From Hamadaea tsunoensis DSM 44101 (GTDB lineage: Bacteria > Actinomycetota > Actinomycetes > Mycobacteriales > Micromonosporaceae), in the NCBI RefSeq assembly GCF_000428945.1, contig NZ_AUAX01000035.1:15368-79367 (forward strand): a stretch of DNA of 64,000 nt. Reading direction: 5' to 3'. Numbering within the stretch: the first letter of the stretch is position 1; the number at the start of each line of letters is the position of its first letter. The notes beneath the pieces were generated by a model that saw only the letters and a list, made by a program, of their open reading frames with translations, made no database searches and was not told where the DNA came from. Shown here piece after piece: positions 42,030 through 59,908 of the stretch. The translations under genes were made by a program, and so were the position numbers.

Positions 42030-43033
42030 AGCGTCGCCGAGAGCGCCTTGACCGGCATCTTCAGCTCCTGCAGCAGCTGAAGATCGGCCGACGCCGGCCG
42101 GCCGAGGGTCGTCAGGTAGTTGCCGACGATGACCGCGTTGACGCCGCCGAGCAGGCCGTCCCGCGTACCCAGGTCGCCGAGGGTGATCTCGCGGCCGCCC
42201 GCGTACCGCAGGATGGTCTTGGGGAGGGCCAGGCGGAAGGCGGCGATGGCGCGCAGGGCGTCCTTGGGGTCCATGGTGGGCTGGTCGCCGAAGGGCGTGC
42301 CGGGGCGCGGGTTGAGGAAGTTGAGCGGGACCTCGTGCGGGTCGAGCTCGGCGAGCTGGACGGCGAACTCCGCGCGCTGCTCCAGGGTCTCGCCCATGCC
42401 GATGATGCCGCCGCAGCAGACCTCCATGCCGGAGTCGCGGACCATCTTCAGCGTGCCCCAGCGCTCCTCCCACGAGTGGGTGGTGACCACGTTGGGGAAG
42501 TAGGTGCGGCAGGTCTCGAGGTTGTGGTTGTAGCGGTGGACGCCCATCTCCACCAGCTCGTCGACCTGCTCCTGGCTGAGCATGCCGAGGCTCGCGGCGA
42601 CGTTGATGTCGACCGCTTCCTTGATCGCCTTGACGCCCTCGCGCATCTGCGACATCAGCTTGGCGTCGGGGCCGCGGACGGCGGCGACGATGCAGAACTC
42701 GGATGCTCCGGTCGCGGCCGTCTGCTTCGCCGCCTCGACCAGCGAGGGGATGTCCAGCCAGACCGAGCGTACGGGGGAGGAGAAGAGGCCGGACTGCGAG
42801 CAGAAGTGGCAGTCCTCGGGGCAGCCGCCGGTCTTCAGCGAGACGATGCCCTCGACCTCGACCTCCGGGCCGCACCAGCGCATGCGCACCTCGTGGGCCA
42901 GCTCCAGCGCTTCCGTGACGCGCTCGTCGGGCAGTCGCAGGATCTCCAGTACGCCCGCCTCGTCGAGGCCGATGCCGCGCTCGAGCACCTGTTCACGGGC
43001 ACGGTCGAGGACGTCGGTGTTCTCCGTAGCCAT
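42026..43033 (-). CDS. bioB: Biotin synthase (radical SAM)
   Basis: CPEDCHFC radical-SAM cluster motif; full-length similarity to BioB; start at MATENT. Confidence 0.9.
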
Positions 43034-43093
43034 GATGCGTACCCTACAAGGTCGGTGGGACACCATCGTTGATCATGAGCTGGGGGTGGCGGG

Positions 43094-44215: not shown

Positions 44216-44946
44216 CGGGACCCGTTCTCATCACCGGCACGGACACCGGCGTCGGCAAGACCATCGTGACGGCGGCCATCGCGGCTTCCGCCACCGCCGC
44301 CGGCCTGCGGGTGGCCGTCGTCAAACCGGGGCAGACCGGCGTCGACCCCGCGTACGGCGAGGTCACCGACGAAGAGGTCATCGCCCGGCTGGCCGCGCCG
44401 GCGTCGACGCGTACGCTGGCCGCCTATCCGGATCCGCTGGCGCCGATCGCGGCCGCCCGGGTCGCCGGGATGGCGGCGCTCGACCTCTACACGGTCGTCG
44501 ACACCGTCAAGCACGTCGCGACCGAGTACGACCTGGTGCTCGTGGAGGGAGCCGGCGGCCTGCTGGTCCCGATGGGCCCGCGCATCGCGGCGATGCCGGG
44601 CGGCGGGGCGTGGAACGTCGGCGACCTGGCCGTGAGCCTGGGCGCCCCGGCCGTGGTGGTCACCCGCGCCGGCCTCGGCACGCTCAACCACACCGCGCTC
44701 ACCCTCGAAGCGCTGGAGCGCCGGGGGATCACCGGGCTGGTGGTGCTGGGCGCGTGGCCGGCCGACCTGGAACTGGTGCACCTGACCAATCTCGACGATC
44801 TGCCGGGGGACCTGCACGGGCTGCTGCCCGAGGGGGCGGGCACGATGGAACCGGGAGTGTTCCGGCGCAGCGCCCCGGGCTGGCTCACCGAGACCCTCTA
44901 CGGCAGCTGCGACGACCCCCGCCTGCTGGCCGAACCCGAGGAGTAA
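44203..44946 (+). CDS. bioD: Dethiobiotin synthetase
   Basis: P-loop ITGTDTGVGKT; 13-nt overlap with bioF. Confidence 0.85.
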   Translation: MDALTGPVLITGTDTGVGKTIVTAAIAASATAAGLRVAVVKPGQTGVDPAYGEVTDEEVIARLAAPASTRTLAAYPDPLAPIAAARVAGMAALDLYTVVDTVKHVATEYDLVLVEGAGGLLVPMGPRIAAMPGGGAWNVGDLAVSLGAPAVVVTRAGLGTLNHTALTLEALERRGITGLVVLGAWPADLELVHLTNLDDLPGDLHGLLPEGAGTMEPGVFRRSAPGWLTETLYGSCDDPRLLAEPEE

Positions 44947-45004
44947 GCCGCGGTTCTTGGCGAAAACGCCGGTTCAGGGCGTGAATTGCCATAATCTGCC
45001 TGAT

Positions 45005-46702: not shown

Positions 46703-46743
46703 TCGGATCTTCACGCACCACATAGCCACGGGGGGAAAGCACC

Positions 46744-48915
46744 ATGACCACGAGAGCCGAGCAGAAGCGACTGGAGGGTCTGAGCCCCTTCGAGCTGAAG
46801 AACTCGCTCATCGAGCTGGCCGACGAGAACGTCAAGCTCAACGCCATCACCATGCTCAACGCCGGCCGGGGCAACCCGAACTGGATCGCGACCGAGCCGC
46901 GGGAGGCGTTCTTCCTGCTCGGCCGGTTCGGCATCGCCGAGTCCCGGCTGGACTGGGACGAGTGGGACGGCGTCGGCGGCATGCCCCAGAAGAAGGGCAT
47001 CGGGGGCCGGTTCGACGAGTTCATCCGGGCCAACGCCGGCCAGCCCGGCGCGGACATGCTGGGCCGCGCGATCGAGTACGGCGTCAAGAAGCTCGGCTTC
47101 GACAAGGACGCGTGGGTCTGGGAGCTGACCGACTCGGTCATCGGCGACCACTACCCCGAACCCGACCGGATGCTCTCGCACGTCGAGCGGGTCGTGCACG
47201 CGTACCTGGTGAAGGAGATGTGCGGCGGGCGGCAGCCGGACCAGCCCTTCGACCTGTACGCCGTCGAGGGCGGCACGGCCGCGATGTGCTACCTGTTCGA
47301 CTCCGCCGTGATCAACGGCATCCTGAACAAGGGCGACACGATCGCGATCATGACGCCGATCTTCACGCCCTACCTGGAGATCCCGCATCTGGAGCGGTAC
47401 CGGTTCGACGTGGTGGAGTTGCAGGCCTCCCGCTACGGCGAGGAGGGCTTCCACACGTGGCAGTACGACGAGGCCGAGATCGAGAAGCTGGCCGATCCGA
47501 AGATCAAGGCGGTGTTCCTGGTCAACCCGTCGAACCCGCCCTCGGTGGCGCTCGCGCAGAAGACCCGCGACCAGATCAAGCGGATCACCGAGACCAGCAA
47601 CCCGGGCCTGACGATCATCACGGACGACGTCTACGGCACCTTCGTGGACGGCTTCGAGTCGCTCATGTCGGCGGTGCCGCGCAACACGATCGGCGTCTAC
47701 TCGTTCAGCAAGTACTTCGGCTGCACCGGCTGGCGGCTCGGCGTGATCGCGGTCAACCGGGACAACATCTTCGAGGGCAAGCTGGCCAAGCTGCCGGCCC
47801 GGCGCAAGGCCGAGCTGAACGAGCGCTACAGCACGCTCTCGCTGGCGCCCGAGAAGATCAAGTTCATCGACCGGATCGTGGCCGACTCCCGGCAGGTGGC
47901 GCTCAACCACACGGCCGGCCTCTCCCTGCCGCAGCAGGTGCAGATGGCCATGTTCAGCCTGTTCGCCCTGCTCGACGAGCAGGACGACTACAAGCAGGTC
48001 TGCCAGACGATCATCATGCGGCGGATGCACGCCCTGACCAAGGGCATGGGCGTCACCCTGCCCCGCGATCCGGCCGCCGCGCACTACTACGTCGAGCTGG
48101 ACCTGCTGAACTACGCGCGCCGCTGGATCAGCGCGGACTTCGCCGAGTGGCTCGAAGGCAGCTTCGAACCCGTGGACCCCGTGTTCCGGCTCGCCGAGAA
48201 GGGATCGGTCGTCCTGCTCAACGGCGGCGGCTTCGACGGTCCCGAGTGGAGCGTCCGGGTCAGCCTGGCCAATCTGCGCTATGAGGCGTACGAGCAGATC
48301 GGTTCGTGGCTGCGCGAGGTCATGGAGGGCTACTTCGCCGAGTTCCAGAAGTCCGGCAAGACGAAGCGCCCGCGGGCGGCGGCCAAGACGCCCGCGGGCG
48401 GCAAGGCGATGATGGCGGGCGGGATGGCCACGATGATCCAGCCGGCCAAGACGGTCGCCGGCAAGCCGCCGCGGAAGGCGGCCGCGAAGACCGCCGCGAC
48501 CCGGCCGGCCACGAAGGGGGCCGCGAAGTCGGCCCCGGCGCGGAAGGCACCCACGACCAAGACCGCGACCACGGCCGGTGCCAAGACCGGGGCCAGGACG
48601 GCGGCCAAGACCCCGACCAAGACCGCGGCCAGGGCTGGGGCGACGGCCACGAAGAGCGCGGCGAAGGCCACCAAGGCCGCGGCGAAGGTGCCCGCGAAGA
48701 AGGTGCTCGCGGCCAAGGCTCCCGCGAAGAAGACCATGGTGACCGCGTCTCCCGCCAAGAAGACGGCCGCCGCCAGGAAGGCTGCACCGGCCAAGAAGAC
48801 GGCACCGGCCAACAAGACGGCACCGGCCAAGAAGGCCGCCCCGATGAAGAAGGCCGTGGCCAAGACGACGGCGAAGAAGACCGCGGCGAAGAAGGCGGTG
48901 GCCAAGAAGCGATGA
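46744..48915 (+). CDS. asdA: L-aspartate 4-(beta-)decarboxylase AsdA with an ~190-aa Lys/Ala/Pro/Thr-rich histone-H1-like C-terminal tail
   Basis: Motifs shared with Pseudomonas AsdA: LSPFELK, NAGRGNPN, AVEGGTAAM, VNPSNPPSV, YSFSKYFGCTGWRLGV, LNHTAGLS.PQQVQMA; the tail is made of AKK/AKT/PAKK repeats from about residue 530. Confidence 0.85.
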   Translation: MTTRAEQKRLEGLSPFELKNSLIELADENVKLNAITMLNAGRGNPNWIATEPREAFFLLGRFGIAESRLDWDEWDGVGGMPQKKGIGGRFDEFIRANAGQPGADMLGRAIEYGVKKLGFDKDAWVWELTDSVIGDHYPEPDRMLSHVERVVHAYLVKEMCGGRQPDQPFDLYAVEGGTAAMCYLFDSAVINGILNKGDTIAIMTPIFTPYLEIPHLERYRFDVVELQASRYGEEGFHTWQYDEAEIEKLADPKIKAVFLVNPSNPPSVALAQKTRDQIKRITETSNPGLTIITDDVYGTFVDGFESLMSAVPRNTIGVYSFSKYFGCTGWRLGVIAVNRDNIFEGKLAKLPARRKAELNERYSTLSLAPEKIKFIDRIVADSRQVALNHTAGLSLPQQVQMAMFSLFALLDEQDDYKQVCQTIIMRRMHALTKGMGVTLPRDPAAAHYYVELDLLNYARRWISADFAEWLEGSFEPVDPVFRLAEKGSVVLLNGGGFDGPEWSVRVSLANLRYEAYEQIGSWLREVMEGYFAEFQKSGKTKRPRAAAKTPAGGKAMMAGGMATMIQPAKTVAGKPPRKAAAKTAATRPATKGAAKSAPARKAPTTKTATTAGAKTGARTAAKTPTKTAARAGATATKSAAKATKAAAKVPAKKVLAAKAPAKKTMVTASPAKKTAAARKAAPAKKTAPANKTAPAKKAAPMKKAVAKTTAKKTAAKKAVAKKR

Positions 48916-50606
48916 AGGACTGGCTGACTGACCTCCTGAACTCGGTCGAGGGCCTGGTCCTCTTCGTCTGCCTGGCCCTCGGCTTCGCCCTGGGCAAGGT
49001 CAGGTTCTGGAAGATCTCCCTCGGCGGCGTCGCCGGTACGCTGATCGTCGCGATCTTCGTCGGCATGCTCGGCGTGACCCTCAACAGCCAGGTGAAGAAC
49101 ATCGCGTTCGCCATGTTCATCTTCACGCTGGGGTACATGTCGGGGCCTTCGTTCTTCGCGAGCCTCAACAGGGCGAGCCTGCGCTACGGCATCTTCACGG
49201 CGATCGAGGTGGTGACGATCCTCGTGGTCGTCGCCATCGCGACCGTGGTCCTCAACCTCGACCAGGGCACCGCGGCGGGTCTGCTCGCCGGTGGTGCGAC
49301 CGAATCGGCGGTGGTGGGTACCGCGACCGATGCGATCGGCAAGCTCGACCTGCCACCCGATCAGATCAAGCTGTTGCAGGCCAACGTCGGTACGGCGTAC
49401 TCGATCTCCTACATCATGGGCCTGATCACGATCGTGCTGCTGACGAGCCAGTTCGCGCCGGCCATCATGAAGATCAATCTGCGCGAGGAGGCCGACAAGC
49501 TGTGGAAGAAGCTCGGCGGCGGATCGGGGGACGAGGAGGGCGCCGCCCAGGCGCTGCCGGAGATCGTCGGCCGGGCGCACGAGGTGACCGTCGCGGCCGG
49601 CCGGACCGTCGGGCAGGTCGAGTCCTCGCTCGGCGACGTCGTCGCGGTGGAACAGGTGCGGCGCGGCGGCGAGACGGTCGAGTTCACCGAGACGACACCG
49701 CTGGAGGCGGGCGACGTCATCCTGCTCAACGGCCGCCGCGAGTACCTGCTCGACGGCGACACGATCGTGGGACCGGAGCGGGCCGAGATCGCCGGGATGG
49801 ACATCGACCTCGACGTGCAGGACGTGATCCTGACGACCAAGGGCTACGGCGGGCAGACGCTCGGCGACATCCGGGAGGCCATTCCCCGCGACGAGCGGCA
49901 CGGCGTCTTCCTGACGAAGATCACCCGGCTCGACCACGTGCTCCCGATCCAGAACGGTACGCAGATCAACGAGGGGGACACGCTCACGTTCAGCGGCCGC
50001 AAGCGGGACCTGAACAAGTTCGTGCCGCGGGTGGGCTTCAAGATCGATCCGACCGTGAAGATGGACGTCATCTTCATCTCGATCGGCATCATCGTCGGCA
50101 TGCTCATCGGCAAGATCGAGGTGCCGCTCGGCTCGATCCCGCTCTCGCTGGGCACCGGCGGCGGCTGCCTGCTGTCCGGCCTGGCGTTCGGCTGGCTGCG
50201 GGCCCGCAACCCGCGTTACGGCCAGTACCACCCGGCGGCGGCCCAGGTCGTCAAGGACCTCGGCCTGGCCACGTTCATCTGCGCGGTCGGGCTCTCGTCC
50301 GGCCCGGAGGCGGTCGACCTGATCAAGAAGTACGGCATCTCGCTGCCGATCGCCGGCATCCTGGTCACGCTGATCCCGGCGACGATCTCGCTCTTCGTGG
50401 CCTGGAAGCTGATGAAGCTGCCCGCGCCGCTCACCCTGGGCGCCGTCGCCGGCCAGCAGTGCTCGACCCCGGCCGCCACGGCGGTCCAGCAGGCGGCGGG
50501 CAACGCCACGCCGCTCATGAGCTACACCATCGTGTACGCGTTGTCCAATGTGGTGCTCCCGTTGCTCGGCCCGATCGTCGTGGCCATGACGGGCGCCCTC
50601 AACTGA
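48912..50606 (+). CDS. Second AspT/YidE/YbjL-family transporter (paralog), start overlapping the asdA stop (ATGA)
   Basis: MKDWLTDLLNSVEGLVLFVCLALGFALGKVRFW...; same duplicated-domain architecture as the upstream transporter. Confidence 0.75.
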   Translation: MKDWLTDLLNSVEGLVLFVCLALGFALGKVRFWKISLGGVAGTLIVAIFVGMLGVTLNSQVKNIAFAMFIFTLGYMSGPSFFASLNRASLRYGIFTAIEVVTILVVVAIATVVLNLDQGTAAGLLAGGATESAVVGTATDAIGKLDLPPDQIKLLQANVGTAYSISYIMGLITIVLLTSQFAPAIMKINLREEADKLWKKLGGGSGDEEGAAQALPEIVGRAHEVTVAAGRTVGQVESSLGDVVAVEQVRRGGETVEFTETTPLEAGDVILLNGRREYLLDGDTIVGPERAEIAGMDIDLDVQDVILTTKGYGGQTLGDIREAIPRDERHGVFLTKITRLDHVLPIQNGTQINEGDTLTFSGRKRDLNKFVPRVGFKIDPTVKMDVIFISIGIIVGMLIGKIEVPLGSIPLSLGTGGGCLLSGLAFGWLRARNPRYGQYHPAAAQVVKDLGLATFICAVGLSSGPEAVDLIKKYGISLPIAGILVTLIPATISLFVAWKLMKLPAPLTLGAVAGQQCSTPAATAVQQAAGNATPLMSYTIVYALSNVVLPLLGPIVVAMTGALN

Positions 50607-50622
50607 CCGACCCGCACCGACC

Positions 50623-50708
50623 GATGATCCCGTTTGGATCAGGGAAATCACCCGAATCATGGGCCAAGATTCGGGTGAGAACCCTGATCCAAACGGGATC
50701 TTGGGGTC
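50623..50708. repeat. Palindromic intergenic repeat, copy 3
   Basis: GATCCCGTTTGGATCAGGGAAATCACCCGAATCATGGGCCAAGATTCGGGTGAGAACCCTGATCCAAACGGGATC. Confidence 0.6.
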
Positions 50709-50744
50709 GCGGGCGACGGGCCGACCGGCCGACGGGCGGGTGGG

Positions 50745-50993
50745 TCAGGACGCGCGGATCTTGTCGAAGTCGCCGCGTACCTCCTCGGGGAGGCGGCCCT
50801 CGGTCGGCAGCCCGGCGGTGTCGCCGATCTTGTCGACGTCCACCTCCACGTCGATCTCCGCGCTGAACTCGGTGTCGTCGAGGATCTCGGTCCGGCCGTG
50901 CCGGCGCCTGCGGTGGATCGCGTACCCGGTTCCGGCGGCCACGGCGAGCACCCCGGCCGCCAGGGCCACCGTGCGTTTCGTGGATGTGCGCAT
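50745..50993 (-). CDS. Small membrane-anchored acidic protein (82 aa), hypothetical
   Basis: GAAGGAG SD 7 nt before the ATG; N-terminal TM (VALAAGVLAVAAGTGYAI) then an Asp/Glu-rich tail. Confidence 0.4.
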   Translation of the reverse strand: MRTSTKRTVALAAGVLAVAAGTGYAIHRRRRHGRTEILDDTEFSAEIDVEVDVDKIGDTAGLPTEGRLPEEVRGDFDKIRAS

Positions 50994-51037
50994 GGCAAGG
51001 CTCCTTCGTATAGACGGAACCCCAGGTCAAGCCAACG

Positions 51038-52225
51038 CTAGCGCTTCGCGATGACGAAAGCGTCGGGCATGCGGAAACTGAGGTTGTCCGGGCACCACGG
51101 CTCGTGCAGCACGGTCACGTTCCGCAGCAGGGCCGCGGCCTCCGCGACCACCACGGCGGATTCCATGCGGGACAACTGCGCGCCGACGCAGCGGTGGGCG
51201 CCCGCGCCGAACGCGAGGTGCCGCCGGGAGCCCCGCTGGCCGGGCTCGAAGGCGTGGGGATGGTCGGTGACCGCCGGATCGCGGCCGGCCTCGGACAGCC
51301 AGAGCACGATCGAGGTGCCGCGGGCGACGGGGACGTCCCCGATCGTCGTGTCGGCGGCGGCCACCCGGCGCCAGGTCGTGATCGGCGGGACCAGCCGCAG
51401 GCCCTCCTCAACCACGTCGTCTACATCAATCGAACCCCGCGCCAGTCCGGCCAGGATCGCGGGTTCGCGGGTCAGCCGGTGCAGCAGCAGCGTCAGGAAC
51501 TGCGACGTGGTCTCCTGCCCGGCGACCAGCAGGAAGAACAGTGCGCCGACGACGAGGTCCGGGTCGCCGAGCTCGCGCAGCTCCGCGATCATCCCGCCGG
51601 CCGTGGCCGCGTGCTTGCGCAGCACCTCGTGGTACGCGCCGACCACCCCGGCCAGGTCCAGCTGCCGCTCCCGGGAGACGGGCGCCCAGAACAGCTCCAG
51701 GGCCGCCCGGGAGAACTCCTTGACGACGGCCATGTCGGTGTCGGGCAGGTCGACCAGCCGGGCCAGCACGAGCAGGGGGAGGTCGGCGGTCAGATCGGCG
51801 TAGAGGTCGACCGGTTCCCCGGCCCGCAGGCGGGCGGCGAGTACGCCGATCCGGCGCCGGACCACGCCGGTGAGCCAATCCCGCTGCGCCGCGACGCGTA
51901 CGGGATGAAGTGCCTGGGCGGTGATCCGCCGGATCCCGGGATGCGACGGCGTGCCGTTGTTGGCGAGGGTCGGCGGGAGCCGGAAGCCGTGCCGGGCCAG
52001 GACGCGCAGCGCGGCGACCGGGATCGGCGTGACCGCGTCGAGGGCGTTGTCCGGTGCGAAGGTGACCGGGTCGGCGAGGACTGCCTTGACCAGGGCGTGC
52101 TCCGCGACCACCACGTGGGTGTGCCCGGTGTGGTCGACCTGGGCCGAGACGCCGGTCCCGGACTCCTCCCACGGACGAAACAGCACGTCGCCGAGCGTAT
52201 CCGGGCGACGCGTTGACAGCCGCAC
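51038..52225 (-). CDS. Cytochrome P450 monooxygenase
   Basis: Heme loop FGAGAHRCVG; I-helix AGQETT; ExxR; 395 aa. Confidence 0.85.
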   Translation of the reverse strand: MRLSTRRPDTLGDVLFRPWEESGTGVSAQVDHTGHTHVVVAEHALVKAVLADPVTFAPDNALDAVTPIPVAALRVLARHGFRLPPTLANNGTPSHPGIRRITAQALHPVRVAAQRDWLTGVVRRRIGVLAARLRAGEPVDLYADLTADLPLLVLARLVDLPDTDMAVVKEFSRAALELFWAPVSRERQLDLAGVVGAYHEVLRKHAATAGGMIAELRELGDPDLVVGALFFLLVAGQETTSQFLTLLLHRLTREPAILAGLARGSIDVDDVVEEGLRLVPPITTWRRVAAADTTIGDVPVARGTSIVLWLSEAGRDPAVTDHPHAFEPGQRGSRRHLAFGAGAHRCVGAQLSRMESAVVVAEAAALLRNVTVLHEPWCPDNLSFRMPDAFVIAKR

Positions 52226-52270
52226 CGACCACCGGGTGTACTGACTCGCCGATCAGGAAAGGGGTGCCGG

Positions 52271-53422
52271 ATGAGCCTGCCCACCGAGCTGGTTCCACTG
52301 ACCGACACCCAGCGTGACCTGCTGGATCTGTGCAGTGACTTCGGTACGCGCGAGATCCGTCCCCGCGCGAGGGCCGTCGACGAGGCGGACACCGAGACGC
52401 CGTGGGATCTCTGGCGGGCGGCGGCCGTGGCCGGGATCACGGACTTCATGCTCCCGGCGGAGCTGGGCGGGGGCGGTTGCACCGACGTGTTCACCCAGTG
52501 CCTCGTGCAGGAGGAACTGGGCTTCGCCGACGCCGCCATCGGCAACCTGCTCACCGCCAACGGCTTCTTCGCCGACCCCGTCCTCGAACTCGGTACGCCG
52601 GACCAGCGGGAGCGCTGGCTGCGCCCGTTGACGGGGGCGGACCCGCCGATGACCGCGCTGGCCGTGACCGAGCCCGGCACCGGCTCGGACGCCGCCGCGA
52701 TCACGACGCGGGCGGACCGCGTACCGGGCGGGTATCGGCTCACCGGGCAGAAGGCGTGGATCTCCAACGGCGGCGTGGCCGAGTTCTACGTGATCTTCGC
52801 GACGGTCGCGCCCGGCACCCGGTCGAAGGGCGTCACGGCCTTCCTGGCCCGCAAGGACGCGCTGGAGTTCGGGGCGCCGATGCGCAAGATGGGCCAGCGG
52901 GCGATCGTCAACACCGAGATCTTCCTCGACGGCGTCTACGTCCCCGACGAGGACCGGCTCGGCGCCGAGGGCCAGGGCTTCGCCGGGCTGATGCGGACGT
53001 TCGACATCTCCCGCACGGTCCTCGCGGCCTCGGCCACCGGGCTCGCCCGCGCCTGCCTCGACCTCGCCACGGGCTACGCCCGCGAGCGCGCCGCGTTCGG
53101 CAAGCCGATCATCGAGCACCAGGCCGTCGCCTTCCGGCTCGCCGACATGGCCACCCGGATCGAGGCCGCCCGGCTGCTGGTCTGGCGGGCCGCCCGGCGC
53201 CTCGACGCGGGCCTGCCGAGCACCACCGAGGCGGCCATGGCCAAGCTCACCGCCAGCGAGACCGCGATGTTCTGCTCGTGGGCGGCCGTGCAGACGCTCG
53301 GCGGCTGGGGCTACTCCCGCGAGTTCCTCGCCGAGAAGTGGATGCGCGACGCGAAGCTGGAGGAGATCGAGGAGGGCACCTCCGACATCCAGCGCCTCGT
53401 GATCGCCCGCGGCCTGCGATGA
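52271..53422 (+). CDS. Acyl-CoA dehydrogenase
   Basis: ACAD N-terminal, middle and C-terminal domains; catalytic Glu in the C-terminal EEIEEGTSDIQRLVIAR; 45-bp divergent gap from the P450 gene. Confidence 0.85.
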   Translation: MSLPTELVPLTDTQRDLLDLCSDFGTREIRPRARAVDEADTETPWDLWRAAAVAGITDFMLPAELGGGGCTDVFTQCLVQEELGFADAAIGNLLTANGFFADPVLELGTPDQRERWLRPLTGADPPMTALAVTEPGTGSDAAAITTRADRVPGGYRLTGQKAWISNGGVAEFYVIFATVAPGTRSKGVTAFLARKDALEFGAPMRKMGQRAIVNTEIFLDGVYVPDEDRLGAEGQGFAGLMRTFDISRTVLAASATGLARACLDLATGYARERAAFGKPIIEHQAVAFRLADMATRIEAARLLVWRAARRLDAGLPSTTEAAMAKLTASETAMFCSWAAVQTLGGWGYSREFLAEKWMRDAKLEEIEEGTSDIQRLVIARGLR

Positions 53423-55287
53423 GGTCGCTCTTCGCGCCCGCGTCGATCGCCGTCTTCGGCGCTTCCTCCCGCGTGGGAAGCTGGGGTCGCCAGCTCGCCC
53501 AGGGCGCCCTGGGATCCGGCCGTCCGGTTCAGCTCGTCGGCCGCTCACTGTCGCTGTCGGACGCCGTCGAACTCGCGGTGATCGCGGTGCCGGCACCCTC
53601 CTTCGAGGCCGCCGTCGACTGCGCCCTGGCCGCCGGTGCGAAGGCTCTCATCGGCATCACCGCCGGCGCCGTCGTGTCTCCTTCTCTCCTTGCCCGGGTA
53701 CGCGAGGCGGGGGCGGTCCTGCTCGGTCCCAACTGTCTCGGTGTCTTCGATTCCGTCGAGCGGCTGAGTCTGGTGTGGGGATCGCTGCCAGCCGGGGACA
53801 TCGCATTGTTCTCCCAGAGCGGCAATCTCGCCTTGGAGATCGGCGCGTTGGCCGGTCGCGGCGGGCTGGGCTTCCGCCGGTTCGCCTCGCTGGGGGACTG
53901 CGTCGATCTGCGGGCGGCCGACCTGCTGGGGCACCACGGCGACGCGCGCGTGGTCGCCCTCTATCTTGAGGACTTCTCCGACGGCCGGGCGCTCATGGCG
54001 GGCTGCGCGTCGCTAGTGGACAGCGGGATTCCCGTGGTGCTGCTGGCGGGCGGGCGTTCGCGGGCCGGGGCGGCGGCCGCCGGGTCGCACACCGGCGCGC
54101 TGTCGTCGGACCACGCCGTGCTCGCGTCGGTGTGCCGCGACGCCGGGGTCCGCCTCGTGCGTACGCCGACCGAGCTGGTCGAGGCCTGCCGGGCCCGGTC
54201 GCTGCCCGGCCCGGTACGCCGGCTCGGGATCGTCGCGGACGGCGGCGGCCACGGGATCGTGGCGGCGGACCTCGCCGAGGAAGCCGGCCTGGAGGTCCCC
54301 GTGCCGCCGGTGGACCTGGCCGGGTCCGGCGAGAAGGACCTGCACAACTACGCCCGGGCGGTGTCGGACCTGGCCGCCTCCGGTGCCGTGGACGGCGTCC
54401 TGCTGACCGGATACTTCGGCGGGTACGCGACCGACGAGCCCACCCTCGCCGCGACCGAGGCCGCCGTGGCCGACGAGCTGGCGGCGGTACGCGTACCGCT
54501 GTTCGTGCACAGCTTCGCCGGCCGTTCCGCCACCGTGGAGCGTCTCGAACGGGCGGGCGTACCGGTGTGGCCGGCCGCCGAGCACGCCCTGGCCGCCGTC
54601 TCCTGCGCCGGTACGCGTTCCCGGCGCGTACCCGGGCCGTTGCCGCGTCCGTCCGCTGTGGACGATCTGCCGCCGGGTGACGCGTACCTGTCGGGCCGGG
54701 CGCTGCTGCCCGACGTCGAGTTCCCGCGCGCCGCGGAGGTACGCGACGTCACCGGGGCGCTGGCCGCGGCCGGGCGGATCGGCTATCCCGTGGTCCTCAA
54801 GGCGCTGGGCCGGGCGCACAAGTCCGACGACGGCGGCGTGGCGCTCGACGTCCGGTCGTCGGCCGCGCTCATCGCCGCCTTCGCGAACCTCCCGGCGGCC
54901 CCCTCGTACGCCGTCGAGCAGCAGATCGACCGGTCCACCGGGATCGAGATGATCGTCGGCGGCCGCCGCGACCCGTCGTTCGGCCCCGTCGTGCTGGCCG
55001 GCCCCGGCGGCGTACGCGCGGAGCTGACCGGCGGCGCGGCCGTCGCGTGGGCGCCCGTCGATGAACCGGCGGCGCTGGCACTGGTCAGGGCATCGGGTGT
55101 TGGGCCACTCTTGGACGGATATCGCGGTCTGCCGGCCCTCGCCGCGGAAGGGCTGGCGGCGCTGATCGTCGCGGTCGGCCGGGCGTTCGTCGACCGGCCG
55201 CGGCTGGGCGTACTGGAGCTCAATCCGGTTCTGGTGACCGAGCGGGGGGTTACCGCGCTCGATTGCCACTGGGAGAATTTCTCATGA
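53419..55287 (+). CDS. ADP-forming (NDP-forming) acyl-CoA synthetase, fused CoA-binding/ligase-CoA and ATP-grasp domains
   Basis: CoA-binding Rossmann IAVFGAS; phosphohistidine-loop region GAAAAGSHTGALSS; C-terminal ATP-grasp (GYPVVLKA); ATGA overlap with the dehydrogenase. Confidence 0.7.
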   Translation: MRSLFAPASIAVFGASSRVGSWGRQLAQGALGSGRPVQLVGRSLSLSDAVELAVIAVPAPSFEAAVDCALAAGAKALIGITAGAVVSPSLLARVREAGAVLLGPNCLGVFDSVERLSLVWGSLPAGDIALFSQSGNLALEIGALAGRGGLGFRRFASLGDCVDLRAADLLGHHGDARVVALYLEDFSDGRALMAGCASLVDSGIPVVLLAGGRSRAGAAAAGSHTGALSSDHAVLASVCRDAGVRLVRTPTELVEACRARSLPGPVRRLGIVADGGGHGIVAADLAEEAGLEVPVPPVDLAGSGEKDLHNYARAVSDLAASGAVDGVLLTGYFGGYATDEPTLAATEAAVADELAAVRVPLFVHSFAGRSATVERLERAGVPVWPAAEHALAAVSCAGTRSRRVPGPLPRPSAVDDLPPGDAYLSGRALLPDVEFPRAAEVRDVTGALAAAGRIGYPVVLKALGRAHKSDDGGVALDVRSSAALIAAFANLPAAPSYAVEQQIDRSTGIEMIVGGRRDPSFGPVVLAGPGGVRAELTGGAAVAWAPVDEPAALALVRASGVGPLLDGYRGLPALAAEGLAALIVAVGRAFVDRPRLGVLELNPVLVTERGVTALDCHWENFS

Positions 55288-56873
55288 TCAGAACCATGAC
55301 GGGGGGCGCGACGCTGGTGGCGAGCCTCGCGGCGCACAAGGTCGACACCGTGTTCGGCATCCCCGGGACCCACAACCTGGAGATCTACCGGCACCTGGCG
55401 TCGTCCAAGATCCGCCATGTCACGCCCCGGCACGAGCAGGGCGCCGGGTACGCCGCCGACGGCTACGCGCGTACGTCGGGCCGGCCCGGGGTCGCCGTCG
55501 TCACCAGCGGGCCGGGGCTGCTCAACATCGCGACCGCGGTGGCGCAGGCGTACTCGGACTCGGTGCCCGTGCTCGTCGTGTCGCCCGGAGCGCCGCTGCG
55601 CCATCCCCATCGCGGCAACGGGGCGCTGCACGAGATGATCGACGCCCAGCGCGCGCTGTCCGGGGTCGTCCGCGACGCGTACCGGGTGACGAGCCACGCC
55701 GAGCTGACCGTCACGATCGCCCAGATCTTCGCCGGCTTCCTGGCCGAGCGGCCGCGCCCGGTCCACGTCGAGATCCCGCTCGACCTGCTCGACGAGCCGG
55801 CCGAGGTGACGATCGCGGGACCGCTGCGCGTACGCCGCCGCTCGGCCGAGGACTGGCAGATCCTGCAGGCGGCGGCCGCCCTGAACCAGGCCAAGCGGCC
55901 CGGCCTGCTGATCGGCGGCGGTGCCCGGGGCGCGGCCGCCCAGGTGCTCGCGGTCGCCGAGCGGTTGCAGGCCGGCGTGCTCACCACGGCCAACGGCAAG
56001 GGCGTCATCTCCGAGACGCACCCGCTGAGCGTCGGGGCCGCCGTCCACCTGCCGGCCGCGATGGACTGGCTGGCCGAGCGGGACTGCGTTCTCGCCGTGG
56101 GCACCGAGATCGCGCCGAGCGACTTCTGGGCCGGACCGCCGCAGCTGCGCGGCGAGCTGATCCGCATCGACCTCGACCCGGCGCAGCTGCTCGTCAACGC
56201 CCGCCCCACGCTGCCGATCTGCGCCGACGCCGCCTCCACACTGGACGATCTGCTGCCGGTGCTCAAGGAGGCGGCCGCCGCGGGGAAACCGAGCGCCGGG
56301 GCAGGCGTACCCCTGGAGGTGAAGGCGGAGGCCAGGGCCGAGGGCGAGCGGTGGACGGGCTGGCTCGACGCGCTGGCCGGGGCCTTGCCCAAGCGCGCGC
56401 TGGTGCTCGCGGACAATGCGATGGCCTGCTACTACGGGGCGCTCGGCAACCTGCCGGTGCACGAGCCCGGCGCCTTCGGCTTCCCCACGGGCTTCGGCAC
56501 CCTCGGGTACGCGCTGCCGGCGGCGATCGGCGCGAAGACGGCCCGGCCGCGGCGGCCGGTCGTGGCGCTGTGCGGCGACGGCGGCTTCATGTTCACCTGC
56601 CAGGAGCTCGCGACGGCGGCGGCCGAAGGGCTCTCGCTGCCGGTGGTGGTCTTCACCAACGGCGGCTACGGGCAGATCCGCGCGGAGATGAAGGCGGCCG
56701 GCTTCGAGCCGATCGGCGTCGACCTGCCGGTGCCGGACCTGATCGGCCTGGCGACCGCCCTGGGCGGGGCCGCGTACGCCGTCAGCGATCCGGCCGACCT
56801 GACCCGCCTGGTGAAGGCGAGCCTGGAGCATCCGGGGCCGACCGTGCTGGTGATCGAGGAGAGCAGTCCGTGA
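55284..56873 (+). CDS. Thiamine-diphosphate-dependent enzyme (acetolactate synthase / 2-ketoacid decarboxylase superfamily)
   Basis: PYR domain GIPG...HEQGAGYAADGYAR; PP domain GDGGFMF...N (GDG-X24-N ThDP motif); ATGA overlap with the upstream gene. Confidence 0.8.
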   Translation: MIRTMTGGATLVASLAAHKVDTVFGIPGTHNLEIYRHLASSKIRHVTPRHEQGAGYAADGYARTSGRPGVAVVTSGPGLLNIATAVAQAYSDSVPVLVVSPGAPLRHPHRGNGALHEMIDAQRALSGVVRDAYRVTSHAELTVTIAQIFAGFLAERPRPVHVEIPLDLLDEPAEVTIAGPLRVRRRSAEDWQILQAAAALNQAKRPGLLIGGGARGAAAQVLAVAERLQAGVLTTANGKGVISETHPLSVGAAVHLPAAMDWLAERDCVLAVGTEIAPSDFWAGPPQLRGELIRIDLDPAQLLVNARPTLPICADAASTLDDLLPVLKEAAAAGKPSAGAGVPLEVKAEARAEGERWTGWLDALAGALPKRALVLADNAMACYYGALGNLPVHEPGAFGFPTGFGTLGYALPAAIGAKTARPRRPVVALCGDGGFMFTCQELATAAAEGLSLPVVVFTNGGYGQIRAEMKAAGFEPIGVDLPVPDLIGLATALGGAAYAVSDPADLTRLVKASLEHPGPTVLVIEESSP

Positions 56874-57994
56874 GCTACCTGGAAGTCGTCTGGACCGACG
56901 AGGTGACTGGGCGCAAGGGCTTCCTCGTCATCGACCGGCTCCGGCAGGGGGCGTCCAGCGGCGGTCTGCGCATGCGGGACGGCTGCACCCTCGACGAGGT
57001 ACGCGATCTCGCCCGCGGCATGACGCTCAAGGAGGCGGTGGTACGCGTACCCGGCGACCGCTATCAGCCCTTCGGCGGCGGCAAGGGCGGCATCGACTGC
57101 TCGCCGCACGATCCCGAGGCGCGGGGCGTGCTGCACCGGTACCTGATCGCGATGCGGCCGCTGCTGGAGACGGTCTGGTCCACCGGCGAGGACCTCGGCG
57201 TACGCCAGGACGTCCTGGACGAGCTGGCCGGCGAGATCGGGCTGCGGTCCACGATCGACGCGGCCCTGCGCCTGCTGCCCGATCCCGAGGAGGGGCTGGG
57301 CCGGGTCAAGGCGGGGTTCGCGGTCGACGTGGACGGGATCAGCCTGGCCGATCTCGTCGGCGGTTACGGCGTGGCCGTGTGCGCGCTCGCCGCTCTGCGC
57401 GGCCGTGCTGGGGTGCGGGCCGTGATCCAGGGGTTCGGGTCGATGGGCGGGGCGACAGCGCGCTATCTCGCCCGGTCCGGCGTCGCCGTCGTCGGGATCG
57501 CGGACGATCTCGGTCTGGTCGTGAACCCGGCCGGCCTCGACGTCGAGCGGCTGCTGGCCGCGCGGGACTCCTTCGGCCGGATCGACCGCTCGTCACTGCG
57601 GGCGTCCGACACGGTCTCGGACGGCCACTGGCTGGACGTCGACTGCGAACTCCTCGTCCCGGCGGCCATCTCCTATGCGATCACCGAACCGGACGCCGGC
57701 CGCGTACGGGCACGGCTGGTGGTGGAGGCGGCCAACTGCGCCACGACGCCCGAGGCCGAGGCGGCGCTGGCCGCGCGTGGTGTGACTGTTTTGCCGGATT
57801 TCGTGGCCAATGTCGCAACCAACGCCTGGTGGTGGTGGACCTTGTTCGGCGACATCGAGCCGACCGAGGCGGCCGCGTTCGCCAAGATCGCGGCTGTGCT
57901 GGGCGGTCTGACCGACGCCGTCCTGCAGCGCTCGGCCGCCGCCGGGGGCACGCCCCGGGCCGCCGCGCTGGAGATCGCTTCCGCCCTCGGCTGA
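56870..57994 (+). CDS. Glu/Leu/Phe/Val-family amino acid dehydrogenase
   Basis: Catalytic Lys-Gly box FGGGKGG; Rossmann GFGSMGG; GTGA overlap with the upstream gene. Confidence 0.8.
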   Translation: MSYLEVVWTDEVTGRKGFLVIDRLRQGASSGGLRMRDGCTLDEVRDLARGMTLKEAVVRVPGDRYQPFGGGKGGIDCSPHDPEARGVLHRYLIAMRPLLETVWSTGEDLGVRQDVLDELAGEIGLRSTIDAALRLLPDPEEGLGRVKAGFAVDVDGISLADLVGGYGVAVCALAALRGRAGVRAVIQGFGSMGGATARYLARSGVAVVGIADDLGLVVNPAGLDVERLLAARDSFGRIDRSSLRASDTVSDGHWLDVDCELLVPAAISYAITEPDAGRVRARLVVEAANCATTPEAEAALAARGVTVLPDFVANVATNAWWWWTLFGDIEPTEAAAFAKIAAVLGGLTDAVLQRSAAAGGTPRAAALEIASALG

Positions 57995-58010
57995 ACTCCC
58001 CGCCCCTCAC

Positions 58011-58102
58011 CCCCTCCAAGATCCCGCTTGGATCAGGGAAATCACCCGAATCTTGGCCCATGATTACGTGCGCAAACCTGATCCAAGCGCGATCTTGGGA
58101 GG
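58011..58102. repeat. Palindromic intergenic repeat, copy 4
   Basis: CCAAGATCCCGCTTGGATCAGGGAAATCACCCGAATCTTGGCCCATGATTACGTGCGCAAACCTGATCCAAGCGCGATCTTGG. Confidence 0.6.
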
Positions 58103-58221
58103 AGCGTGCGCGAGCGCTGGGACGAGTCTGGGAGAAGGCGGGCCGCGCGAGGCAGAATTGCGGGGAATGGATCACCTGGCGTACATGTTGTGTGCCGTAT
58201 AGCGATTGTCCGTGAAAGGCT

Positions 58222-59157
58222 GTGACCGTGCGAGACCCGCAGGAACTGTTCGAGCTGACGCCCACGGCGAAGGACTTCGACTTCGGCCGGCCCGTGCTGC
58301 TGCACGCCCTCAGCGGTTTCATCGACGCCGGCGGCGCCGGCCGGCTGGCGCGCGAGCACCTGCTGGAGGTCCTCGAACCCGCGCTGCCCGGCGAGTCGGC
58401 GGTCGCCACCTTCGACGTCGACCAGCTCCTCGACTACCGCGCGCGGCGGCCGCTCATGGACTTCGCGGCCGACCACTGGGAGTCCTACGACGACCCCAAG
58501 CTCCAGCTGCACGCGCTGCGCGATCACGACGGCACGCCGTTCCTCCTGCTCACCGGCCCCGAGCCGGACATGCAGTGGGAACGCTTCATCGCCGCGCTGG
58601 TCTCCCTGATCAAGACTCTCGGCGTACGCGCGACGGTCGGCATCCACGCCATCCCGATGTCGGTGCCGCACACGCGGCCCGCCGGGGTGACCGCGCACGG
58701 GACGCGCCCCGAGCTGATCGCCGGCCACGAGCCCTGGATCGACCACGTACGCGTACCGGCGAGCGTGACGAACCTGCTCGAATTCCGGCTCGGCCAGCAG
58801 AACCTCGACGCGCTCGGCTATGCCGCCCACGTGCCGCACTACCTGGCCGAGGGCGAGTACCCGCCGGCCGCCGAACTGCTGCTGAACTCGGTGTCTCGGG
58901 CGACCGGGCTGCTGCTGCCGACCGACCAGCTGCGCGAGGCGTCCGAACGCGTACGCGCGGAGATCGAGCGCCAGCTCGTCGACAACCAGCAGGCCGCGGC
59001 GGTGGTGAAGGCGCTGGAGGAGCAGTACGACGCGTTCACCCGGGGCCGGTCGGCCAACCTGCTGACCGAGTCGACGCCGCTGCCGTCGGCCGATGAGCTG
59101 GGTGCCGAGCTGGAACGCTTCCTCGCCGAGCACTCGAAGCGCGACCAGGGCGAATAA
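58222..59157 (+). CDS. PAC2 (proteasome assembly chaperone 2)-family protein
   Basis: Length and the HAL.GFIDAGGAG N-terminal motif are typical of actinobacterial PAC2-family proteins; GTG start. Confidence 0.65.
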   Translation: MTVRDPQELFELTPTAKDFDFGRPVLLHALSGFIDAGGAGRLAREHLLEVLEPALPGESAVATFDVDQLLDYRARRPLMDFAADHWESYDDPKLQLHALRDHDGTPFLLLTGPEPDMQWERFIAALVSLIKTLGVRATVGIHAIPMSVPHTRPAGVTAHGTRPELIAGHEPWIDHVRVPASVTNLLEFRLGQQNLDALGYAAHVPHYLAEGEYPPAAELLLNSVSRATGLLLPTDQLREASERVRAEIERQLVDNQQAAAVVKALEEQYDAFTRGRSANLLTESTPLPSADELGAELERFLAEHSKRDQGE

Positions 59158-59275
59158 ACACCTATCGTTCACCTGATTGCGATCGAAAACACTTTCATTC
59201 GTCCGTAGCCGGGCGTATCGTTCTCCTCCCGCCTCTGAACAGGACTTCTGTCCCAGAAGCAGGAAAGGAGGACCC

Positions 59276-59908
59276 ATGAGCCGGCTTCATCTGTTCGACA
59301 TGGACGGCACCCTGATCCGCGGCTCCTCCGCCAACATCGAGATCGCCAAGGTTCTCGGCAAGGTGGAGGAGTTCCGGTCCCTCGACCGCGAATTCGCCGC
59401 CGGGACGATCGACTCCCGCGAGTACGCGAACCGCGCGTACGAGATGTGGTCGACCCTCACCGACGAGGTCGTGGCGATGGCGTTCGCCGGCGCCCCCTGG
59501 CTCGCCGGCATCCGCGACGTCTGGCAGGAGATCACCGATCGCGGCGAGCACTGCGCCGTCATCTCGCTGTCGCCGAGTTTCTTCGTGAGCCGCCTGCGCG
59601 TCTGGGGCGTCCACGAGACCCACGCGGCGCGCTTCCCCGAGGTGCCCTTCCCCGTCGGCACCACCATCGACACCTGCGGCGTACTCACCCCGGCCGCCAA
59701 GGTCACCATCGCCGACGAGCTGTGCGCCCGGTACGGCGTCGACCGGTCCGACTGCGTCGCGTACGGGGATTCGATGTCGGACGCGGTGCTGTTCACCGCG
59801 GTCGGCACGTCCGTCGCCGTCAACGGGGACCATCACGTCAGCGGGATCGCCACCCACCGGTACGCCGGCGGAGATCTCCGCGAGGCGTACCGGCTGGTGG
59901 CGGGCTGA
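59276..59908 (+). CDS. HAD-superfamily hydrolase (subfamily IB, phosphoserine-phosphatase-like)
   Basis: Motif I LFDMDGTL; motif IV GDSMSD; SD AGGAAAGGAGG. Confidence 0.7.
   Translation: MSRLHLFDMDGTLIRGSSANIEIAKVLGKVEEFRSLDREFAAGTIDSREYANRAYEMWSTLTDEVVAMAFAGAPWLAGIRDVWQEITDRGEHCAVISLSPSFFVSRLRVWGVHETHAARFPEVPFPVGTTIDTCGVLTPAAKVTIADELCARYGVDRSDCVAYGDSMSDAVLFTAVGTSVAVNGDHHVSGIATHRYAGGDLREAYRLVAG

Follow-up and report, generated by a model that had tools for sequence, protein, structure and literature searches.

A conserved gene module for a putative amino acid to acyl-CoA route, under predicted TetR-type control, in Hamadaea tsunoensis and other Actinomycetota

Results

The cassette of Hamadaea tsunoensis

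We studied a stretch of 64,000 nucleotides from Hamadaea tsunoensis DSM 44101 (contig NZ_AUAX01000035.1, positions 15,368 to 79,367; G+C content about 70%), in the following called the window, which carries a four-gene cassette of metabolic enzymes divergent from a cytochrome P450 gene. An earlier note on this DNA had listed these five genes and read them as a pathway, possibly a biosynthetic one. Our gene calls, i.e., third-position GC analysis combined with a listing of open reading frames (ORFs) and confirmed by Pfam, find all five at the positions given there, and Pfam agrees with the enzyme families that had been named. The P450 gene (PF00067) covers 51038-52225 on the minus strand. The plus strand continues with the genes of an acyl-CoA dehydrogenase (ACAD; 52271-53422, 383 aa, with the Pfam N, M and C domains), a fused NDP(ADP)-forming acyl-CoA synthetase (ACS; 53419-55287, 622 aa, CoA_binding_2, Succ_CoA_lig and ATP-grasp_5), a thiamine diphosphate (ThDP)-dependent enzyme (55284-56873, 529 aa, TPP_enzyme_N/M/C) and an amino-acid dehydrogenase of the Glu/Leu/Phe/Val (ELFV) type (56870-57994, 374 aa, ELFV_dehydrog_N and ELFV_dehydrog). 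The protein sequence of the latter is 100% identical to an NCBI protein of Hamadaea tsunoensis.

The junctions between the cassette genes are, in order, ATGA, ATGA and GTGA overlaps as read from the sequence. Such four-base stop/start overlaps are frequent in high-GC actinomycetes and are thus evidence for an operon, but nothing unusual per se. Three other Micromonosporaceae loci (L002, L003, L034) show 4-nt, 1-nt or 0-nt junctions at the equivalent places and an independent gene call on a Logan contig yields identical boundaries, such that the start-codon choices are well supported. The four cassette genes form one tightly coupled operon, and the claim of a single translational unit stands.

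Downstream of the last gene, in the gap to a PAC2-family gene, we find a long hairpin (58016-58098, plus strand) with 22-nt arms and a 39-nt loop, i.e., an inverted repeat with 95% complementarity and a predicted fold of -49 kcal/mol (z = -6.3). In other Hamadaea species, this position is taken by long palindromes that differ in sequence (CATGATCA...TGATCATG), that is, the structure is conserved while the sequence is not. The hairpin probably separates the cassette from the PAC2 gene as a terminator or insulator; since no U-tract was found after it, the terminator role is putative. A search of 50000-59500 for riboswitches and known RNAs gave no hit besides one spurious miRNA match far below its gathering score.

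Conservation of the module across Actinomycetota

A scan of species-level genomes with the dehydrogenase yielded 80 loci (54-80% identity), in which we mapped the partner genes by tblastn within 10 kb of the dehydrogenase gene. The loci span Micromonosporaceae/Micromonosporales, Streptomyces, Streptosporangiales, Pseudonocardiales and Kribbella, and also Arthrobacter and other Micrococcales, one Mycobacterium, Geodermatophilus, Nanopelagicales, Acidimicrobiia and Solirubrobacteraceae. The ThDP enzyme is encoded near the dehydrogenase in 45/80 loci, the ACAD in 42/80 and the ACS in 36/80, while all three are found together in 31/80. Gene orders vary. If AADH denotes the dehydrogenase and SDR a short-chain dehydrogenase/reductase, we observe ACAD-ACS-ThDP-AADH, ACAD-ThDP-AADH-ACS and AADH-ACS-SDR-ThDP-ACAD as well as split divergent units. 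The genes have thus been rearranged repeatedly and yet kept their linkage, which is strong evidence for a common function.

The company that the module keeps is also informative. In at least 31 genomes, the module is found together with TetR repressors, permeases for amino acids and peptidases, a combination that points to catabolism. Its context in other genomes further includes polar-amino-acid ABC binding proteins, N-methyl-amino-acid oxidases and a mycothiol-dependent formaldehyde dehydrogenase; the transporter families near the module are too generic for naming a substrate. In Streptomyces loci, two MSOX/MTOX-like oxidases flank the dehydrogenase (one of them above the cut-off for N-methyl-L-tryptophan oxidase), accompanied by two TetRs, an EamA exporter, a prolidase-like amidohydrolase, a flavin amine-oxidase-like protein, peptide ABC transporter genes and an S-(hydroxymethyl)mycothiol dehydrogenase (690 bits, cut-off 513). 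In Micromonosporaceae and Streptosporangiales, hydrolases of the HDAC-like, DmpA and S15 types are additionally encoded. Only 6/80 loci have an aldehyde dehydrogenase gene inside the fetched region, and the ureohydrolase (guanidinobutyrase) signature GGDH[STA]...D[AS]HxD was found in 0/80. No polyketide synthase (PKS), nonribosomal peptide synthetase (NRPS) or other biosynthetic enzyme is among the recurrent gene families of the 80 loci.

As a separate observation, five loci from acI/Nanopelagicales-type metagenome-assembled genomes (L025, L037, L048, L065, L066) carry a homocysteine S-methyltransferase gene (PF02574) convergent to the end of their operon ACAD-SDR-ThDP-AADH-ACS-ACAD2, e.g., at 14967-16043 (minus strand) in L048. 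This linkage may hint at methionine or S-methylmethionine; it is seen in one clade only and has no operator nearby.

Control region and operator

Aligning the P450/ACAD gap across three Hamadaea species reveals one conserved block between diverged flanks, i.e., TTGACA, followed after 17-18 nt by T(G/C)TACTGACTC-N-CC-NN-TCAG(T/G)AA. In the window, this block corresponds to a cassette promoter at 52213-52242 (plus strand) with a -35 box TTGACA (52213-52218), an 18-nt spacer and a -10-like TGTACT (52237-52242). It is a promoter predicted from conservation rather than a mapped transcription start. A generic consensus promoter scan is silent at this place because the -10 carries a G at position 2.

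The -10-like element is overlapped by an operator-like palindrome, TACTGACTCGCCGATCAGGA, at 52239-52258, the core of which (ACTGA-N8-TCAGG, 52240-52257) has one mismatch. The palindrome ends 13 bp before the ATG of the ACAD gene and is thereby placed as a predicted classic repressor site. Scanning the whole window with at most one mismatch returns 52240-52257 as the sole match. Two other Micromonosporaceae loci (L002, L003) have exact copies at the same place. The earlier note had suggested that the gap be checked for co-regulation with the P450; in the three Hamadaea species it indeed contains a conserved predicted promoter with an operator-like palindrome.

Next, we consider the palindrome in the related loci. 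The exact form ACTGA-N8-TCAGT occurs at 44 sites in 1.53 Mb, for which the base composition predicts about 1, and is present in 38/80 loci. When one mismatch is allowed, 54/80 loci have a site within 250 bp upstream of regulon genes. Sorted by downstream gene, such sites precede most often TetR genes (35), followed by the genes of the dehydrogenase (24), the ACAD (21), the ACS (15), APC permeases (9) and the ThDP enzyme (7); a methyltransferase gene preceding the P450 and N-methyl-amino-acid oxidase genes account for 4 sites each and the P450 itself for 2. The symmetrised operator consensus is TTACTGACTSRYSAGTCAGTAA, and the candidate operator for the module-linked TetR reads TACTGACTCGCGAGTCAGTA. 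Two Micromonosporaceae loci (L034, L056) show a one-mismatch operator-like site just upstream of their S15 gene.

A TetR-family regulator gene is found in 46/80 loci. Its structural relatives are uncharacterised structural-genomics entries and the best named relative is, weakly, BetI. Given the distribution of sites, the co-conserved TetR would bind the ACTGA-N8-TCAGT palindrome, and the genes would form a TetR-controlled regulon whose members and TetR gene share one palindromic operator upstream. The mycobacterial repressor BkaR was rejected as the regulator; its operator, GTTA-N-T-N4-A-N-TAAC (PMC3920632), differs from the palindrome.

We also scanned metagenomes with the 20-bp palindrome and considered high-GC contigs, as many matches were low-GC chance matches. 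The high-GC contigs include the core module (L183, L197) and a Hamadaea-like arrangement of ACAD, operator and P450 (L153). Repeatedly, they show an operator followed by genes of a GbcA-like Rieske oxygenase and an MSOX-like oxidase, and the surrounding genes are of the TetR, S15, DmpA, S9 and HDAC-like families. The best named relative of the Rieske oxygenase is the glycine-betaine monooxygenase GbcA, which it matches with 170 bits (cut-off 670). The Rieske oxygenase gene lies in this arrangement in L110 (5455-6594), L147 (6509-7603) and about 20 other metagenome loci, and is found in 0/80 dehydrogenase-centred genome loci. It may mark a sister regulon, or else another operon, unlinked to the first, within one and the same regulon. 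Taken together, the wider regulon(s) look like a system for the catabolism of peptide-linked and N-methylated or betaine-type amines, in which formaldehyde is released and the free amino acid passes to the dehydrogenase.

Dehydrogenase

The dehydrogenase shows the features of the ELFV superfamily (PF00208 with 113.7 bits, PF02812 with 45.4 bits) and aligns with hexameric glutamate dehydrogenases (GDHs) at about 1e-36. The catalytic residues K72, K54 and D108 are invariant in 81 sequences. The residues that bind glutamate are not retained. That is, at the position of the ligand K89 (here and for S380 in the numbering of C. symbiosum GDH) we find S in 67/81 and G in 14/81 sequences, such that GPTKGG of GDH is GASSGG in the window protein, and at the position of S380 we find A in 68/81 and S in 12/81. 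In addition, the A163 position is changed to G in the family. GDH equivalogs of NCBIfam reach at most 116 bits compared to cut-offs of at least 536, which together with the lost ligands separates the protein from the glutamate dehydrogenase class.

It does not fall among the leucine, valine or phenylalanine dehydrogenases (LeuDH, ValDH, PheDH) either. No LeuDH or PheDH chain is among the PDB matches at E<=1e-5. A six-residue insertion lies between the catalytic lysines, which are spaced by 18 residues compared to 12 in LeuDH-type enzymes, and the pocket positions are S/G, G and A, without the hydrophobic pocket of the LeuDH type. The specificity residues, which the earlier note had wanted compared between the Leu, Phe and Val types, thus speak for none of these. 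Finally, the GGVxxSYFEW segment of GDH is replaced by a near-invariant TNAWWWW, in which the GG of GGVxxS is deleted and the four Trp are identical in 81/81 sequences.

Judged by these residues, the dehydrogenase is a separate ELFV subfamily, neither GDH nor LeuDH-type, and the most conserved marker of the predicted regulon. Its predicted substrate is neither glutamate nor a branched-chain amino acid of the LeuDH type.

ThDP enzyme, acyl-CoA synthetase and acyl-CoA dehydrogenase

The ThDP enzyme exceeds the cut-off of the NCBIfam model NF005712 ('5-guanidino-2-oxopentanoate decarboxylase') with 523 bits (cut-off 500). Orthologues from five other loci of distant taxa score 521, 448, 544, 503 and 548 bits, and the model is always their best match. 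The protein has the cofactor-activating Glu in RHEQG and the ThDP motif GDG...NGG. By these scores it is a member of the AruI-like (2-ketoarginine decarboxylase) subfamily, for which decarboxylation is predicted.

The ACS shows the Pfam domains and the phosphohistidine of the NDP-forming acyl-CoA synthetase superfamily. The phosphohistidine lies in the loop GSHTGAL and is aligned to the His of 8wzu and to His292 of DddX (7cm9), and the protein is about equally related to both, i.e., to an ADP-forming 4-hydroxybutyrate-CoA ligase (8wzu) and a dimethylsulfoniopropionate (DMSP) lyase (DddX, 7e-41). The HMMER alignment with DddX covers only the DddX residues 141-364 and 527-722. The segment 391-435 lies outside of it; this is where DddX has Trp391 and Phe435 for cation-pi contacts and Glu432 as the catalytic base (PMC8163506). 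The ACS is the fastest-evolving cassette protein with 40-60% identity to its orthologues.

As a side observation, the Hamadaea ACS (622 aa) is shorter than most orthologues (about 660-700 aa) and much more diverged than its operon neighbours, and its CoA-binding domain is partly trimmed (only 35 bits on Pfam). This shortening and divergence could reflect relaxed or shifted selection on that step.

The ACAD is a canonical enzyme of the short/medium-chain type with the catalytic Glu in EEGTSDIQ. Its best PDB match is the T. thermophilus ACAD 1ukw (1.7e-85), and SCAD, MCAD and BCAD structures range from 1e-69 to 1e-85. It reaches no substrate-specific NCBIfam equivalog, the best being acryloyl-CoA reductase AcrC with 284 bits (cut-off 640). 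The SDR, present in 18/80 loci, has 2,4-dienoyl-CoA reductases as best named matches (NCBIfam 290 bits with a cut-off of 318; human DECR1 1e-54; PECR 3e-48).

The divergent P450

The P450 protein (73 bits on PF00067) shows in translation the haem-Cys loop FGAGAHRCVG, the I-helix motif AGQETT and the EXXR motif EEGLR, as expected for a P450. Its nearest structures are CYP116B-type haem domains, at only about 1e-31 and low identity. Depending on the start codon, it has 395 aa (GTG 52225, the database start) or 382 aa (the conserved GTG 52186). The former overlaps the -35 box of the cassette. The latter is the only start codon common to the three Hamadaea orthologues, and the P450 gene of L002 has no in-frame start upstream of its equivalent. 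With a start at 52186, the gap is 84 bp and, by comparison of the orthologues, the P450 is probably 13 residues shorter than annotated. Thus, what had been described as a 45-bp gap, a length that rests on GTG 52225, is probably 84 bp long; that the divergent units share one short control region holds.

P450 orthologues (69-76% identity) occur in 6/80 loci, all from Micromonosporaceae. Two of these are Hamadaea loci with the cassette, while the other four (three Phytohabitans, one Micromonospora) are without ACAD, ACS and ThDP enzyme and have the order bioB, bioF-bioD, P450, methyltransferase, operator, dehydrogenase. Among the 31 complete modules, 29 lack the P450. Its adjacency therefore reflects family-level synteny, and we rejected the P450 as the core partner that the earlier note had seen in it; from this distribution, it is best described as a lineage-specific add-on. 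As the P450 unit diverges from the operator-bearing region in both arrangements, it may be a lineage-specific member of the regulon.

No ferredoxin gene adjoins the P450 gene; judged by its sequence alone, the 82-aa ORF at 50745-50993 resembles a small membrane-anchored protein. A BioI-like role, suggested by the synteny with bioB-bioF-bioD, is unsupported, as BioI is not among the top 60 structure matches of the P450. These biotin genes lie at 42026-44934 (bioB on the minus, bioF and bioD on the plus strand), about 6 kb upstream of the P450 gene. The same bio genes lie immediately next to the unit of P450 and methyltransferase and the dehydrogenase in Phytohabitans and one Micromonospora, and in four Streptomyces loci the dehydrogenase gene has a bioF-like gene (aminotransferase class I/II) at a distance of 7-8 kb. 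The proximity to bio genes looks like conserved chromosomal synteny.

Neighbourhood in the window

To describe the neighbourhood, we annotated the larger, coding-like ORFs across the 64 kb with Pfam. Upstream of the P450 gene are bioB, bioF, bioD, an AspT-like antiporter gene, an aspartate 4-decarboxylase gene and a second aspartate:alanine antiporter gene, while the cassette is followed downstream by the PAC2-family gene, a HAD hydrolase and a CBM2 protein. Elsewhere, the window contains sbcCD, LigD, a chitinase, an extracytoplasmic function (ECF) sigma factor and ABC sugar-transport genes. Overall, the annotated ORFs are housekeeping, transport, DNA-repair, biotin and glycoside-hydrolase genes only, i.e., no PKS, NRPS or other core biosynthetic enzyme is among them. 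They also contain no bkd genes and no BkdR or BkaR; the 80 loci were not scanned exhaustively for bkd.

Some further features are of interest by themselves. At 44786-50606, two paralogous Asp-Al_Ex/TrkA_C transporter genes flank the aspartate 4-decarboxylase gene, forming an AspD-AspT proton-motive module with a duplicated antiporter. The downstream antiporter copy matches the aspartate:alanine antiporter of NCBIfam (621 bits, cut-off 547) and the upstream copy is typed by Pfam only. Two other Hamadaea loci carry at least the aspD-aspT-P450 part. A YhhN-family gene adjoins a fatty-acid-hydroxylase-family gene at 39486-41002 (minus strand). Finally, the ORFs at 17546-19438 (630 aa) and 28964-29833 (289 aa) show a strong coding signal but no Pfam match at E<=1e-4 to 1e-5.

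Discussion

Proposed route

With moderate confidence, we regard the cassette as the form that a conserved catabolic module of Actinomycetota, controlled by a repressor, takes in Hamadaea, and the module as a general route from an amino acid to an acyl-CoA. We infer from the sequences how the steps are ordered, in which direction flux runs and to which class the substrate belongs. The ELFV-type dehydrogenase would convert an L-amino acid to its 2-oxo acid by NAD(P)+-dependent oxidative deamination, followed by decarboxylation to the aldehyde, shortened by one carbon, by the AruI-like ThDP enzyme. An aldehyde dehydrogenase, usually unlinked and not in the window, would oxidise the aldehyde to the acid, which the ADP-forming ACS may turn into the acyl-CoA at the expense of one ATP (yielding ADP). 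The ACAD would then set the 2,3-double bond (enoyl-CoA) and the DECR-like SDR, present in many other genomes, could reduce the dienoyl- or enoyl-CoA. Expression would start from the promoter in the P450/ACAD gap, the -10 of which is covered by the palindromic operator for a TetR-family repressor that is encoded beside the module in most other genomes, but not in the window. Only in Micromonosporaceae does a P450 share the operator region. Speculatively, this enzyme may act on the incoming compound as a demethylase or hydroxylase. Family assignments and catalytic motifs thus support the pathway logic that had been suggested before, i.e., deamination, a ThDP step, formation of a CoA ester and desaturation.

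Several observations weigh against this interpretation. No aldehyde dehydrogenase, TetR or SDR gene was found in the 64-kb window (for TetR, among its annotated ORFs), such that the route needs unlinked genes in Hamadaea. The operator of the window has one mismatch and is, taken alone, not significant, as 0.65 matches are expected by chance. The name of NF005712 is based on one Pseudomonas enzyme and the model is only of 'subfamily' level. For the dehydrogenase, inferring the substrate from pocket residues is weak without a structure. Furthermore, the classical arginine transaminase pathway is not reproduced, since none of the 80 loci has a ureohydrolase.

Which amino acid is used?

Our favoured guess is an amino acid with a long polar or cationic side chain that resembles lysine or is N-methylated; 2-aminoadipate is an alternative. 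We favour a lysine-type substrate because of the AruI-like decarboxylase, the Trp-rich enlarged pocket, the pairing of ACAD and dienoyl-CoA reductase, and the deacetylase and demethylase accessories. Spelled out, lysine, Nε-methyl- or Nε-acetyl-lysine after trimming, or homoarginine would be degraded via 5-aminopentanal and 5-aminovalerate to 5-aminovaleryl-CoA, which is desaturated and loses its ω-ammonium group to give 2,4-pentadienoyl-CoA, to be reduced by the DECR-like SDR. This gives the ACS, the ACAD and the SDR each a necessary role, and the 2-oxo acid after which the ThDP subfamily is named is cationic and similarly long. Three exchanges (K89 to S/G, A163 to G, S380 to A) enlarge the pocket of the dehydrogenase, and the four invariant Trp of this enzyme could suit cation-pi contacts. 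Extended versions encode LAO/Gln-type binding proteins, HDAC-like deacetylases, a flavin amine-oxidase-like protein, formaldehyde dehydrogenase, MSOX-like oxidases and a GbcA-like Rieske oxygenase. Analogous chemistry for the elimination is provided by the conversion of 5-hydroxyvaleryl-CoA to pentadienoyl-CoA in clostridia. On the other hand, this support is wholly inferential, 2-oxo-6-aminohexanoate cyclises readily, the SDR is not in the Hamadaea window, and to our knowledge no ELFV enzyme for a basic amino acid has been described. The literature on 5-hydroxyvaleryl-CoA that we found concerned no such route, and other terms of the pathway were not found. We consider the lysine-type pathway, in these specific terms, unlikely. 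We are similarly doubtful about its fuller form, in which one of these cationic C6 amino acids would be catabolised by an undescribed pathway, α-deaminated by the TNAWWWW subfamily of ELFV enzymes, with its ω-ammonium or ω-guanidinium group expelled from the 2-enoyl-CoA to yield 2,4-pentadienoyl-CoA and the Micromonosporaceae P450 replacing the Rieske and flavin demethylases of other lineages.

Alternatively, Leu, Ile, Val, norleucine or peptide-derived N-methyl forms might bypass the branched-chain 2-oxo acid dehydrogenase complex via dehydrogenase, keto-acid decarboxylase, acid, ACS and an ACAD of the isovaleryl-/isobutyryl-CoA type. This follows the same Ehrlich-like logic as the earlier note; the generic short/medium-chain ACAD would fit, as would N-methyl-amino-acid oxidases and prolyl-type peptidases acting on peptides rich in N-Me-Val and N-Me-Leu. 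The dehydrogenase, however, is on the GDH lineage, without a LeuDH or PheDH match among the structures, and lacks both the hydrophobic pocket and the lysine spacing of 12, while the ThDP enzyme is AruI-like and not KdcA/IPDC-like. The dienoyl-CoA reductase would be without a role, and neither bkd genes nor BkdR/BkaR-type control was found in the annotated window ORFs and the operator comparison. This makes branched-chain or aliphatic substrates distinctly unlikely. A sulfonium route, in which S-methylmethionine or Met yields DMSP or 3-methylthiopropionate, with an ACS like DddX or DmdB and an ACAD like DmdC or acryloyl-CoA reductase, draws on the DddX match of the ACS (7cm9; PMC8163506), on AcrC as best NCBIfam match of the ACAD, on the convergent homocysteine S-methyltransferase in the five acI-type loci and on the APC permeases of the regulon. 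We deem it very unlikely, as the ACS resembles DddX no more closely than it resembles 4-hydroxybutyrate-CoA ligase, with the DddX similarity dropping in the N-terminal half, W391, E432 and F435 of DddX fall into the non-aligning region, the AcrC score is far under its cut-off, and the methyltransferase linkage is that of a single clade with no operator nearby. Most improbable is that cassette and P450 jointly serve biosynthesis, be it of a small metabolite or of an unusual starter unit in acyl-CoA form, with the ThDP enzyme possibly being a carboligase. The pairing of ELFV and ThDP enzymes has a biosynthetic precedent in ScyB/ScyA of scytonemin biosynthesis, and the divergent P450 shares the control region. 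Nevertheless, the annotated window ORFs contain no core biosynthetic gene, the P450 is missing from nearly all complete modules, and the module is widespread, rearranged and linked to repressors, permeases and peptidases, which does not bear out the starter-unit reading of the earlier note. That note had named, as the finding that would count against it, orthologous cassettes inside a known branched-chain amino-acid regulon with BkdR-type control and no P450. Orthologous cassettes without a P450 do exist; they lie in no known branched-chain regulon, their control is of TetR type by prediction and their operator is unlike that of BkaR.

Relation to known systems

The proposed amino acid to acyl-CoA route is close in logic to the arginine transaminase (ATA) pathway of Pseudomonas aeruginosa (AruH, AruI, KauB, GbuA), with which it shares the sequence amino acid, 2-oxo acid, aldehyde, acid and a ThDP enzyme of the subfamily named after AruI (5-guanidino-2-oxopentanoate decarboxylase). 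In contrast to ATA, which opens with a transaminase, the module opens with an NAD(P)-dependent ELFV dehydrogenase, shows no guanidinobutyrase-type ureohydrolase in its 80 neighbourhoods and sends the acid on to a CoA ester and desaturation, neither of which is part of ATA. The Pfam-annotated genes adjoining the cassette include neither a pathway transaminase nor an aldehyde dehydrogenase, and we rejected the full arginine/ATA pathway given that no ureohydrolase lies near the 80 loci.

The ACS belongs to the same ACD family, with its phosphohistidine loop, as the enzymes of archaeal peptide fermentation and the 3-hydroxypropionate/4-hydroxybutyrate-CoA ligases of Thaumarchaeota, 8wzu being its best structural relative. 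Unlike in these systems, the ACS is here most likely ATP-consuming and CoA-ester-forming in aerobic actinomycetes, and it is paired with a non-oxidative ThDP decarboxylase where archaeal peptide fermentation uses 2-oxoacid:ferredoxin oxidoreductases. The dehydrogenase shares its fold, its motif for dinucleotide binding and the two Lys and one Asp of catalysis with GDH and the Leu, Val and Phe dehydrogenases, but differs from them by the missing K89/S380 ligands, the six additional residues between the lysines and TNAWWWW.

With regard to regulation, other lineages pair the same operator and TetR family with GbcA-like Rieske, MSOX/MTOX-like and flavin amine-oxidase-like proteins and S-(hydroxymethyl)mycothiol dehydrogenase, which recalls BetI/GbdR-type regulons for betaine and N-methyl amines (GbcAB, dimethylglycine demethylase, sarcosine oxidase, formaldehyde detoxification). 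None of the accompanying genes of these other lineages is in the Hamadaea window, and the product would pass to the dehydrogenase, decarboxylase and CoA route instead of glycine/serine metabolism. The mycobacterial BkaR regulon likewise combines an autoregulated TetR-type repressor, palindromic operators and acyl-CoA-metabolising genes in actinobacteria (PMC3920632), but comprises acc, fadE and bkd genes in place of ELFV, ThDP and ACD genes and uses a different operator.

That is, all parts are of known families, and their logic resembles Ehrlich- or ATA-type catabolism with entry into β-oxidation. New are the combination of enzymes, the distinct ELFV subfamily and the TetR operator that unites the genes across the phylum. 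A limited literature search found no published description of the module.

Conclusions

At least 80 species-level genomes, from Actinomycetota of soil, plants and freshwater, encode the dehydrogenase and its partners. Every database name that we met for the dehydrogenase is generic ('glutamate dehydrogenase' or Glu/Leu/Phe/Val-family), such that defining the regulon would correct a widespread mis-annotation. The cassette and its P450 should not be taken for a biosynthetic gene cluster. With one operator, one repressor family and four or five enzymes, an orphan pathway becomes testable, which may provide both a new amino-acid dehydrogenase specificity for biocatalysis and a new way in which abundant actinomycetes use amino acids or N-methylated amines.

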